A stretch of 63,887 bases of DNA, the filler included, from Reclinomonas americana ATCC 50394 (Eukaryota): assembly GCA_048213135.1 (NCBI GenBank). It is 23 parts of 23 records of this genome, joined end to end, with 100 filler letters (N's around TTAATTAATTAA, not from the genome) between each part and the next. Parts side by side here need not be neighbours in the genome. Positions count along the whole stretch, not along the records: positions 52,832 to 55,010 come from AFZH01023108.1; 22 more parts are not named here. One strand, 5' to 3'. Under the pieces are notes generated by a model, which made no database searches, was not told the origin of the DNA, and was given only the letters and a program-made list of their open reading frames with translations. Below are positions 52,000 through 55,110 of this stretch, in pieces (the stretch's first letter is position 1; each line of letters starts with the position of its first letter). The translations under genes and the position numbers were made by a program.

Positions 52000-52029
52000 G
52001 GTGATACCCGAATCAGCTCGGGTATCACC
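52000..52029. promoter_or_regulatory. 12-bp inverted repeat before the MarR gene (operator or hairpin)
   Basis: GGTGATACCCGA-N6-TCGGGTATCACC. Confidence 0.5.
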
Positions 52030-52043
52030 AAGGGGGTAAGGCA

Positions 52044-52580
52044 ATGACACAGTCAAGAGCGAGTCTTCCTGAAGACCGGTTTCTGGACTTCGTGAAGCTG
52101 GCTGGTGATCGCACCGCAGCCGAACTCGGGCATCTCGGAAGCGGACCCACCGTGCTATTGACACTGCTCACGCGTCGCGTCACGCGACAGTTGGCGGACA
52201 GCGATAGCGTGGTGTTACCCGACGGCCTCACTTGGGCAGGCTTCCGAGTCTGTTTCGCGTTGTGGGTTGCCGGGCCACTTGAGCCCCACCGCCTTGCATC
52301 TCTCACGTCCATGAGCCGGGCGGCCGTGTCCGCTGCCCGTAAGCCCCTCGAATCCCACCAGCTGGTGACGTCGGTCGGCTCGTCCACCGATCAGCGATCC
52401 ATTCTCCTGTCGCTGACACCGCAAGGCGCCGACCTCGTCCTGGAGATCCACGAACGTGCGATGCGGAACGCTACCGAAGCCCTCAATGCGCTGACGCTGC
52501 CCGAGCAACACCTGCTCGTGGGGCTTCTCGGAAAGGTTGTAGGCGACGAGGAAGATGCTTCGACCGCCTCCGACGGGTGA
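52044..52580 (+). CDS. MarR-family regulator
   Basis: GLTWAGFRV, SRAAVS, DQRSILLSLTPQG. Confidence 0.88.
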   Translation: MTQSRASLPEDRFLDFVKLAGDRTAAELGHLGSGPTVLLTLLTRRVTRQLADSDSVVLPDGLTWAGFRVCFALWVAGPLEPHRLASLTSMSRAAVSAARKPLESHQLVTSVGSSTDQRSILLSLTPQGADLVLEIHERAMRNATEALNALTLPEQHLLVGLLGKVVGDEEDASTASDG

Positions 52581-52731: not shown

Positions 52732-53054
52732 NNNNNNNNNNNNNNNNNNNNNNNNNNNNNNNNNNNNNNNNNNNNTTAATTAATTAANNNNNNNNNNNNN
52801 NNNNNNNNNNNNNNNNNNNNNNNNNNNNNNNTCTCTCTCTCTCTCTCACTCCGTTGTCACCACCTCGACAACAACCCAATCAGCGTTTTTTCCTTTCTCT
52901 CACCGTGTAGTTCCTCTATCTCTCTCTCATGTGCGCGCGTCTCTCTCCATCTCTGTGTGTGTTCCTCTCTTCGATTTCCGTCGACAAAATGTGTGTGATG
53001 CCATGAGAAGAAAAAAGAAAAAAGAACAAAAAAAGACAACCGCGTGTGTTTTTT

Positions 53055-54968
53055 TCAATGCCCGCTCTCTTCCCACCCGAGGTAGATGGCCTCCTTGACT
53101 GCAATGTGCGCAATCGGCCGGTACAGCTGGCGATGTAGTTGCATGGTGTACTGCGAGACGAGAGGAGTGAGTTTCACGCGAGGCAAACGGCAATACAAAC
53201 AAGGGGGTTTACCTCGGGAATGGCGGGAGCATCACGCAATGCGGGAACGACCTTGTTGCGCAGGTAGGCAAAGGCCTGCAGTGGGCGACGCCGACTCCTC
53301 TGCTTGTCGTCGTCGTCGTCGACGATGTCGCTGTCAAGTCGCACGGACACTGCCTGGCGCGTGTAGTGGCCCTTGAATATGCCTTCGTATTCGTCGAGAC
53401 CGGCCAGGGTCTCGTCGCTGACACGCCACACCTCGCCGCGCACGGGGTGGCAGGCGCTGCCGTCGCCGGCACCGTGGTCGCCCGGACGCAGGAGGTACGG
53501 TACGCCCGAGTCGCCAACGACCAGCGGCATGGGCACGAGGGTGGTGGCCGGACCGAGTCGGCGTGCGCCGCGGCTGAGGAATTTGGCGTTCCAGTGGAAG
53601 CCGCTCTTCAGTGTGCCGTACACGAACAGCAGGTGTGGATGCTCCGCGTCGTCTTCAACAACAACAGCGGCGGCTGCAGGTGCTGTTCTCGGCGGAGCGC
53701 ACCACTGCCGCTTGCACCACCAGCCGACGCAGGCAATGGCGGCCAGCGTGCTGAGAAAATTGAGGGCCATCGAGAGCGGCCACTCCTTGAGGTAGAACAC
53801 CACGACGACGTCGACGACAAAGAGCAGCACCGCGGCCGTCAGGGCCACAGTGACGCGACTCAGGGACGACCACCAGCGGAGAGCGGCTTCGCCGAGGGGC
53901 ACGGGTGGTGGGGGTGGTGGTCGCACGGCGGCCGGGTACCACTGCGCGTAGTGTGGCACGTCACCCTGCCAGCGCATCTCCCAGTTGACCTCCACCAGGT
54001 CGCCGAGGTGCGGGTGCAGCTTGTCGTTGAGGCGGAACTCGAATGGACCTGCGGCGGCACAAGCAGGCCAAGCGTGAGTGGGTGATGGAGAAGGGTGGCA
54101 TGACTACAGGGAGGCGCACCATTTTCCAGCTGTTTCCGGTCATGCTCCCACCGGAAGAGCGCCGTGCCGGTGCAGGTGAGGAACGGACTGATCTCAATCA
54201 GCCGCGCCTTGCCACTGCGCGATGCGGGTGAGGAGATTGAGTGTCGTCCGCGCTGTGCTACTGCAAAAAAAAAAACATACCTCGCTGGCAAGTAGGCAAA
54301 GTCGACAATGTACGAGTCGACGCCCACGTGCGGGTGCACCAGACGCCACTCCTCCATGATGCACTCCTGTATCCGCTCCTTTAGTGGCTCCAGGTGCGGG
54401 TACACGGCGTAGTGGTCGTACTGCAGAGAGAGCGAGTGGGAGTCGATCAGCCACAAAGACAGGGCATGAAACACACGTTGTGCACACCCACCTGCGACAT
54501 GGCGGTGACCTGCCCTCGCGACACAAACACGCGGAACTCATAATCCAGCGTCATATCCTCCTCCCAACACCGAAACACCAGCTGCTCCGGCTCACCATAC
54601 TCCAGCCAGTCGCGCAAATCCGTAAACACACGCTCGCTGGTCAACAGCAACGCCATGGCCGCGGCACCGGAGCTCACTCGCAAGTAGCGCACTTGCGACA
54701 CGGCCTGCAGCTTGACATTGGCCGGCAACGCCCTGTACTCTGCCCTGTCCATGTCACAGCTGTCGTCGTCACCTCCCTCGACCACTTCCGGCAGCGACAG
54801 CCCTTGCGCGGCGCACACTTGTCGCAGAGCGCGCACGTACTGCCGTCGCACATCATCGCGATCCAGCGGATCTGCGTCCTTGGGCGATCGCCCGCACAGT
54901 CGCATGAATGCTCCACTGGCCAGCCGCTCATCGCCTCGCAGCAGCACGTCGATCGTTGACTCCAGGTT
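53055..54968 (-). CDS. Cdc123-like (R2K) ATP-grasp + 2 TM + gamma-glutamylcyclotransferase fusion, 5' partial
   Basis: Exons 54968-54492, 54420-54281, 54214-54120, 54048-53213, 53150-53055, all GT-AG, give 547 aa in frame. Motifs FMRLCGRSPKD, SERVFTDL, EFRVFV, SQY, YIVDF, IEISPF, ALFRW; LFVYGTLK, PYL, GEVW, LDEYEG. Confidence 0.85.
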
Positions 54969-55110
54969 CTGCAACGCGACAAGGTCATGACTTGACTTGA
55001 CAGATTCACANNNNNNNNNNNNNNNNNNNNNNNNNNNNNNNNNNNNNNNNNNNNTTAATTAATTAANNNNNNNNNNNNNNNNNNNNNNNNNNNNNNNNNN
55101 NNNNNNNNNN

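Follow-up and report, generated by a model that had tools for sequence, protein, structure and literature searches.

A Cdc123-like ATP-grasp domain fused to a predicted GGACT-type cyclotransferase in Reclinomonas americana belongs to a widespread protist family with a possible gamma-glutamyl function

In the butirosin system, the ATP-dependent ligase BtrJ adds a gamma-glutamyl protecting group that the GGCT-fold enzyme BtrG removes as 5-oxoproline; these are separate bacterial proteins working through a carrier-protein-bound intermediate, and they are neither R2K-type nor fused nor membrane-bound. For cyclisation by a cyclotransferase, the alpha-amino group of the gamma-glutamyl moiety has to be free. 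To our knowledge, canonical CDC123 is the only R2K.1 protein to have been studied, and we know of no product for the R2K/Cdc123 clade. The founding R2K paper, of 2015, predicts the clade to be amide-bond ligases and nests R2K enzymes among the peptide/amide-bond ATP-grasp ligases (PMC4431377). On the cyclotransferase side, GGACT substrates are gamma-glutamylamines, and enzymes of the GGCT fold share YG(S/T)L and use a Glu for catalysis (PMC7022552). Here we describe a gene of Reclinomonas americana ATCC 50394 (assembly GCA_048213135.1) that joins these two kinds of domain, a Cdc123-like ATP-grasp domain followed by a predicted GGACT domain, and that belongs to a conserved, uncharacterised protist family of fixed domain order whose two constituent domain families were already known. 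The gene lies in a stretch of 63,887 nucleotides that was analysed as a whole and is called the window below.

The closest working principle is that of trypanothione synthetase-amidase and glutathionylspermidine synthetase/amidase, where an ATP-grasp C:N ligase and an activity that breaks the same amide share one chain; the two activities are termed 'conflicting' in the abstract of PMC2427367 and have to be regulated. The resemblance is one of principle only. These enzymes use an unrelated ATP-grasp family, have a papain-like CHAP amidase that is N-terminal, in the opposite domain order, are soluble, and act on a glutathione-spermidine bond rather than on a gamma-glutamyl-amine cleaved by cyclisation. 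Neither a glutathionylspermidine synthetase-type ATP-grasp nor a CHAP amidase was among the Pfam matches of the window pieces or of 15 relatives.

The gene reads along the minus strand of a contig of 2,179 bp (window positions 52832-55010, GC 0.608), and the fusion, a spliced single frame carrying both domains, is confirmed as real (Table 1). An earlier note on this DNA had proposed four GT-AG introns of 71, 66, 71 and 62 nt that yield a 547-codon frame, and the model held: joined from 54968, the exons give 1,641 nt, or 547 codons, plus a stop, and the unspliced fragments each hit stop codons, with exon D sitting in a listed open reading frame (ORF) at 53174..54103. The spliced protein aligned with 23 homologues without gap or insertion at all four junctions, and tblastn segments from three homologues break where the introns lie, which together place the splicing beyond chance. 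Every motif named in that note (RSPKD, EFRVFV, SQY, VDF, IEISPF, LFVYGTLK and LDEYEG, along with the Pro-rich linker and the hydrophobic segments) was located. Exon D by itself runs from the last part of the ATP-grasp domain through the linker into most of the GGACT domain, so the fusion needs no assumption about splicing, and the single-gene reading is borne out both by this exon and by the transcriptome ORFs of relatives that carry both domains.

The span first assigned to the gene, 53055..54968, stood at its stop codon and splice junctions but not at its upstream limit. The frame continues open for 14 codons past 54968 to the contig edge at 55010, and tblastn similarity runs upstream of 54968 for three homologues (P0002 to 54995, P0001 to 54986 and P0012 to 54974), so 54968 is no start and the 'ttgcag' before it is probably no acceptor; as an exon start, 54968 was accordingly rejected. 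The gene is 5′-truncated by the contig end, and full-length homologues have approximately 65-100 additional conserved N-terminal residues that fall outside the window. When the missing 5′ exon was sought with three homologues as tblastn queries over the entire window, only the known locus was found, with everything else at E-values of 0.05 or above.

Table 1. Exons, introns and protein features of the fused gene, in window coordinates
Feature	Position	Strand	Description
Exon A	54492..55010	-	Open at 5′ contig edge; ATP-grasp N-terminal half
FMRLCGRSPKD motif	54908-54876	-	Exon A
SERV motif	54638-54627	-	Exon A
GEPEQ motif	54596-54582	-	Exon A
EFRVFV motif	54539-54522	-	Exon A
Intron 1	54421..54491	-	71 nt, GT..AG, phase 0; AMSQ/YDHY junction aligned gap-free with homologues
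Exon B	54281..54420	-	140 nt
YIVDF motif	54312-54298	-	Exon B; strand-4 Asp, equivalent of human Cdc123 D233
Intron 2	54215..54280	-	66 nt, GT..AG
Exon C	54120..54214	-	95 nt
LIEISPF motif	54201-54181	-	Exon C; ExS, at the Cdc123 D246xN248 position
CTG	54174-54166	-	Exon C
Intron 3	54049..54119	-	71 nt, GT..AG; tblastn segments of homologue P0002 break here
Exon D	53213..54048	-	836 nt, uninterrupted; ATP-grasp end, linker and most of GGACT domain
Pro-rich linker part	53923-53897	-	Exon D
Hydrophobic segment 1	53854-53798	-	Exon D, linker
Hydrophobic segment 2	53776-53720	-	Exon D, linker
GGACT domain	from 53635	-	Exon D
LLFVYGTLK motif	53632-53606	-	Exon D, GGACT domain
LDEYEG motif	53398-53381	-	Exon D, GGACT domain
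Catalytic Glu codon (predicted)	53386-53384	-	Within LDEYEG
Acidic insert	53335-53285	-	Exon D, GGACT domain
Intron 4	53151..53212	-	62 nt, GT..AG, phase 0; IPE/YTMQLH junction aligned gap-free
Exon E	53055..53150	-
GGACT conserved C-terminal tail	53150-53076	-	Exon E
Stop codon TGA	53057-53055	-	Exon E

Sequence and predicted fold support the assignment of the C-terminal domain as a GGACT-type gamma-glutamylamine cyclotransferase. Exon D matched the Pfam family GGACT (PF06094) with an E-value of 7.4e-15 and 56.0 bits, against a cutoff of 22.8. With phmmer, LLFVYGTLK aligned to the N-terminal motif of human GGACT, and the second Glu of LDEYEG aligned with human E82, the sole residue by which the E82Q mutant structure 3jud differs from wild-type 3jub. 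Both hallmarks of the GGACT/AIG2-like group, YG(S/T)L and the Glu of catalysis, are thus present in the window. Among fused proteins, the catalytic Glu was conserved in 58 of 66 and YGTLK in 59-60 of 66. A profile of the family matched mouse GGACT (1vkb, 1.7e-17) and human GGACT (3jub, 3.9e-15), and it aligned the exon E tail to the C-terminus of the mouse protein. The AlphaFold2 model of exon D had a predicted local distance difference test score (pLDDT) of 80.4, rising to approximately 95 in the GGACT part, with helices at residues 51-86 and 91-115. Its best Foldseek hits were 1vkb, 3juc, 3jud and 3jub (E-values 1e-9 to 3e-9, TMt 0.72-0.73, 28-30% identity); GGCT (3cry, 2rbh) followed at about 5e-6 and ChaC2 at about 1e-3, which makes GGACT the closest fold. 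Compared with GGACT/A2LD1 itself (3jub, 3juc, 1vkb), the window domain has the same fold, YGTLK motif, E82-aligned Glu and C-terminal tail, but it is the C-terminal part of a longer protein, with a minimum length of 561 residues, and carries an acidic insert. This insert consists of an Asp run followed by an Arg run, was modelled with low confidence, and is missing from most homologues.

The N-terminal domain is, by profile and by model, a divergent Cdc123/R2K.1-type ATP-grasp. Taken alone, exon A reached only 18.4 bits (E-value 0.0013) against D123 (PF07065), under the cutoff of 24, and a phmmer search of the Protein Data Bank (PDB) with exon A alone gave no match even at an E-value of 10 or less. 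The family evidence is firmer: D123 passed its cutoff in 15 of 15 scanned relatives (40-88 bits), six of six full-length homologues exceeded both cutoffs (40-70 bits for D123, 43-71 bits for GGACT), and PF07065 and PF06094 were both precomputed in 23 of 23 long hits. When hidden Markov models were built from 23 homologues, with the window left out, the spliced window protein matched the N-domain model at 3.8e-102 and the C-domain model at 1.3e-55, and the family profile matched human Cdc123 (8phd, 7e-19) and Schizosaccharomyces pombe Cdc123 (4zgn, 1e-11). Fold evidence for the N domain comes from the AlphaFold2 model of homologue P0002 (pLDDT 80.2, pTM 0.76), which is 62% identical to the window protein over 239 tree-alignment columns. 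In Foldseek this model found Cdc123 (4zgp, E-value 7.3e-12, TMt 0.66; 8phd, 8.6e-12) and GGACT (3jud, 1.9e-9, TMt 0.73), with D-Ala-D-Ala ligases at about 2e-3 or weaker. Pfam, PDB-profile and fold searches therefore agree with the earlier assignment of both domains, and we hold the architecture and its family membership to be very nearly certain.

Residue by residue, the N domain departs from the R2K signature in two respects. In a profile alignment with human Cdc123 (chain numbering being native plus 20), the invariant Asp and the Glu-x-Ser align with D233 and D246xN248, the Cdc123 residues singled out in the 2015 R2K paper (PMC4431377). Of the 61 fused sequences whose N domain is almost complete, all 61 have ExR, the Asp of strand 4 and the last motif's Glu, and 60 have the Lys of the RSPKD loop. 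On strand 2 of R2K enzymes a Lys is described as 'absolutely conserved' in PMC4431377; here the basic residue at the strand end was Arg in 60 of the 61 sequences, and at the last metal-binding motif the terminal (D/E)xN signature had its Asn (N248) replaced by Ser, giving ExS rather than ExN or DxN, in the window and in 59 of the 61. The R and K of the window's FMRLCGRSPKD are 7 apart, with R at the predicted strand end and K in a loop of the P0002 model. This spacing (R94-K101 in P0002) equals that of K104-R111 in mammalian CDC123, where R111 contacts ATP according to a passage of PMC12860950; we infer the equivalence of positions from the spacing, the stretch itself lying outside the tool alignments. 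The Asn-to-Ser change could mean altered or lost ligase chemistry, and the Ser can be read either way, as fitting a ligase or a non-ligase.

Set beside canonical CDC123 (R2K.1; 8phd, 4zgn), the family has the same ATP-grasp fold by the homologue model, ExR, strand-4 Asp (D233) and acidic residue at D246, and a putatively equivalent pair of basic residues at strand end and loop, 7 apart. It differs in overall identity (approximately 18%), in a D123 match that covers only about 105-278 of 300 profile positions, in the swap of Arg and Lys at the basic positions, and in the window's ExS against DxN; canonical CDC123 is also a soluble chaperone ATPase of eIF2 assembly (PMC12860950), whereas the family described here is GGACT-fused and often membrane-tethered. 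The low identity, partial profile coverage, fusion and membrane anchors argue for the N domain of the fused branch being a paralogue and not the CDC123 orthologue.

A phmmer search with exon A against 1.84 billion representatives gave 278 proteins at an E-value of 1e-3 or less, 104 of them at 1e-10 or less. Both domains were present in 124 of 287 fetched proteins, with the ATP-grasp domain first in all 124. Carriers include the Amoebozoa Planoprotostelium, Protostelium, Clastostelium, Luapelamoeba, Mastigamoeba, Pelomyxa and Physarum, the heterolobosean Acrasis kona, the malawimonad Gefionella okellyi, an acanthoecid choanoflagellate (Acanthoecidae), the foraminifera Nonionella and Bolivina and the cercozoan Mataza in Rhizaria, one representative of Picozoa, and the stramenopiles Heterosigma and Seminavis, as well as a partial record labelled as rotifer. 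The fused set comprises complete transcriptome ORFs (Gefionella, the acanthoecid and several Amoebozoa) as well as NCBI genome models, and its members are labelled 'gamma-glutamylcyclotransferase', 'AIG2-like family' or 'hypothetical protein' in the databases. The architecture is thus neither unique nor rare: it is found across many supergroups, widespread yet uncharacterised. Scans for prokaryotic and viral relatives covered 185,579 species genomes (21 stretches) and IMG/VR (19 stretches), and tblastn found no relative among these stretches, the scans having relied on two short patterns by which distant relatives could be missed.

Two further records deserve mention. A metagenome contig of GC 0.47 (L001:791-2300) holds a relative at 51% identity whose N-terminal half falls into at least three tblastn segments in two frames, indicating that it too bears introns; it is too distant to provide the missing 5′ end of the window gene. 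P0225, a 1,343-residue protein from an acanthoecid record and a cluster mate of P0012, has the two-domain unit at 17-606 followed by about 700 further residues, and may be either a longer architecture or a chimeric transcript.

We built a rapid maximum-likelihood tree from 110 N domains that were almost complete, without canonical CDC123 sequences. One branch, with a Shimodaira-Hasegawa-like approximate likelihood ratio test (SH-aLRT) support of 96, separates 83 rows (61 fused and 22 unfused) from 27 rows of which none is fused, and the 22 unfused rows on the fused side mostly resemble truncated gene calls. That all fused sequences fall on one side of a well-supported branch suggests a single old fusion kept under selection. 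The sister clade, which includes a Pelomyxa schiedti protein labelled 'cell division cycle protein 123-like' and members from Dermamoeba and Cymbomonas, has the same RSPKD, SER, ExR, Asp and Glu and scores 59-88 bits for D123, but it has no GGACT domain and no conserved Cys pair; P. schiedti has one gene of each kind. The last motif is ExS in 59 of 61 fused sequences and ExN in 19 of 19 sister sequences, QYD in 60 of 61 fused sequences is QYN in the sister clade, and GEPEQ is a feature of the fused clade. These active-site substitutions fit a change of chemistry that would have come together with the fusion.

The Cys pair just mentioned consists of two fused-clade residues, present in 53 of 61 and 56 of 61 sequences, that are Ser or Thr in the sister clade (C96 and C268 in P0002, within 54908-54876 and 54174-54166 in the window). 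One stands beside the Lys of the ATP loop and the other just past the ExS motif.

The linker between the domains of the window protein was described in the earlier note as a transmembrane hairpin that puts both active sites on one membrane face, and its predicted features fit this reading. Its two hydrophobic segments have Kyte-Doolittle peaks of 2.76 and 1.64, are separated by 7 residues, and were both modelled by AlphaFold2 as long helices; the outer flanks of the pair carry 2 and 3 Lys/Arg residues, and such basic flanks on both sides are what a hairpin would have that keeps the two catalytic domains together on the cytosolic side. As a defining trait of the family, on the other hand, the hairpin was rejected. 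In the 123 fused proteins whose linker could be delimited, the linker is 25-171 residues long (median 65). Hydrophobic segments are absent from 82 of these linkers, while 20 have a single one, 19 have two and 2 have three. Even so, at least one such segment occurs in 41 of the 123 linkers, compared with 3 of 123 inside the N domain and 5 of 123 inside the other domain, and the hydrophobic linkers are scattered on the tree such that at least 16 changes are required.

A different kind of putative anchor appears in the unfused sister clade, where the C-terminus of 19 of 27 proteins is CxxX, resembling a CaaX box and frequently preceded by another Cys, as against only 2 of 61 fused proteins (the 19 are P0164, P0180, P0182, P0183, P0186, P0190, P0191, P0198, P0200, P0203, P0204, P0207, P0209, P0211, P0215, P0216, P0218, P0219 and P0223). 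Such termini point to Cdc123 paralogues that may be prenylated and bound to membranes in Pelomyxa, Dermamoeba, Cymbomonas and others, with a predicted CaaX lipid anchor in place of the linker hairpin. Taken with the hydrophobic linkers of the fused proteins, it means that membrane association recurs in the branch.

These features allow a mechanism to be proposed for the window protein. The hairpin with its basic outer flanks would anchor both domains at the cytosolic membrane face, where the ATP-grasp domain would bind Mg-ATP and convert a carboxylate, at best guess the gamma-carboxylate of free L-Glu, to an acyl phosphate. The activated Glu would then be coupled to an amine, which might belong to the side chain of Lys, to a polyamine or to the head group of a lipid, and the product would be a gamma-glutamyl-amine with its alpha-amino group free. 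The conserved Glu of the GGACT domain would let this alpha-amine attack the gamma-amide, releasing 5-oxoproline and the free amine. The two activities could make up a regulated make-and-break cycle, or they could open and close a route in which the gamma-glutamyl group serves as a 'protecting group'. The chain has two conserved and apparently competent active sites in fixed order. Such writer/eraser chemistry is plausible, and we tentatively put a coupled gamma-glutamyl function of the two domains forward as a possibility that falls somewhat short of probable.

Several observations weigh against this proposal. In PMC12860950, canonical CDC123 is described as an eIF2-assembly chaperone with ATPase activity, and the word 'ligase' is absent from that paper. 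The R2K strand-2 Lys is replaced by Arg in the fused clade, and the Asn of the metal motif by Ser. An unregulated ligase and cyclotransferase acting on the same bond would do no more than waste ATP and Glu. A hydrophobic linker is missing from 82 of 123 fused proteins, which implies that membrane tethering is not essential to the family chemistry, and the window protein itself is without its N-terminus. For a predicted complex of the N domain (1-330) and C domain (428-614) of P0002, the score was 0.00 against a mark of 0.34, with controls not run, values that count neither way on whether the domains dock.

In the main rival account the domains function independently, the N domain being a CDC123-like, ATP-dependent binding or assembly factor, an ATPase and not a ligase, with a membrane-proximal partner. 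The GGACT domain would be a plain catabolic cyclotransferase of gamma-glutamylamines, with the fusion doing no more than placing or expressing the two together. The chaperone ATPase role in eIF2 assembly reported in PMC12860950, the solved CDC123 structures bound to eIF2-gamma domain 3 and ATP (as their entry titles give), and the Asn-to-Ser change of the ExN motif would all suit it, and linkers that range from 25 to 171 residues are what loosely coupled domains would have. It does not readily account for a domain order fixed in 124 of 124 proteins, for the retention of the fusion across many supergroups, for the conservation of catalytic residues in both domains, for the fused-clade-specific active-site substitutions that accompany the fusion, or for the placement of all fused sequences on one side of the SH-aLRT 96 branch. 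We judge independent functions to be rather unlikely.

A further rival reverses the order of the two activities, as a salvage route: the GGACT domain would free an amine and 5-oxoproline from a gamma-glutamyl-amine, such as might arise when cross-linked protein is broken down. The ATP-grasp domain would then build the freed amine, or some other carboxylate, into another product by ligation, and the bond broken would not be the bond made. Such a route would avoid the futile cycle, and it is compatible with GGACT working on free gamma-glutamylamines (part of PMC7022552) and with the many different amide products of the ATP-grasp assemblage (part of PMC4431377). Nothing specific speaks for it, however, as a C-terminal GGACT domain and conserved active sites fit either order, and we consider it improbable.

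Finally, the idea that the gene model is an artefact, either two adjacent genes for an ATP-grasp and a GGACT protein or a chimeric assembly, might be prompted by the short contig (2,179 bp) within a stretch of 23 joined contigs and by the many database hits of about 300 residues that carry D123 only, but it is scarcely credible, since the stop-free 836-nt exon D encodes parts of both domains, 124 independent proteins (complete transcriptome ORFs and NCBI genome models among them) have the same architecture, and most of the 300-residue hits stop at the domain edge or at window intron positions, as cut-off gene calls would. Two separate genes, in particular, are effectively refuted by the continuity of exon D and the 124 fused proteins.

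As for its surroundings, the window consists of 23 short contigs of 1.0-6.4 kb each, with GC from 0.555 to 0.689, joined by spacers of the form N44-TTAATTAATTAA-N44. Genes that flank a spacer are not physically linked, so arguments from gene neighbourhood are invalid anywhere in the window (1-63887). The next contig (55111-57677, minus strand) carries a eukaryotic-type MCM helicase over two frames, one ORF matching MCM_OB and P-loop profile positions 3-122 and the other P-loop positions 122-224 and the lid; the split across frames indicates an intron, and with it a eukaryotic origin for this contig too. On the contig at 51307-52731, an intron-free ORF (52005-52577, plus strand) matched the MarR family at an E-value of 1.2e-5 and 25.5 bits. 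The presence of this MarR-type ORF on a neighbouring contig may mean that bacterial and eukaryotic contigs are mixed in the assembly.

Full-text literature searches turned up no paper on the fusion, on how widely it occurs or on the sister clade with its CaaX-like ends, and the founding R2K paper (PMC4431377) has zero occurrences of the fusion in the parts searched, its text and one supplement file. The architecture therefore appears not to have been described before, as the earlier note had suggested. If the two domains are independent, the finding is a new member of an unstudied fusion family. If they are coupled, the fusion carries a chemical hint: GGACT cleaves only gamma-glutamyl-amines with a free alpha-amino group, and its presence would point to the bond that Cdc123-like enzymes make. 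The Glu-to-Gln change known from human GGACT is then a possible trap for catching the product, and the recurrent predicted anchors, the hairpin of fused proteins and the CaaX-like box of their unfused sisters, give a lead on where the substrate may be sought. In the broadest and frankly speculative form of the idea, which we think unlikely, the fused and CaaX clades together would be an ancient membrane branch of Cdc123-like proteins, possibly as old as the last eukaryotic common ancestor, that installs a hitherto unrecognised reversible gamma-glutamyl mark on a membrane-proximal amine, either on a lysine of a protein or on the head group of an amine lipid, with the fused form carrying its own eraser. 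Given the spread over many supergroups, such a modification, if true, would be of general interest for protist cell biology, and the GGACT fusion would be the first chemical clue to the target of ligation by an R2K.1/Cdc123-type ATP-grasp.

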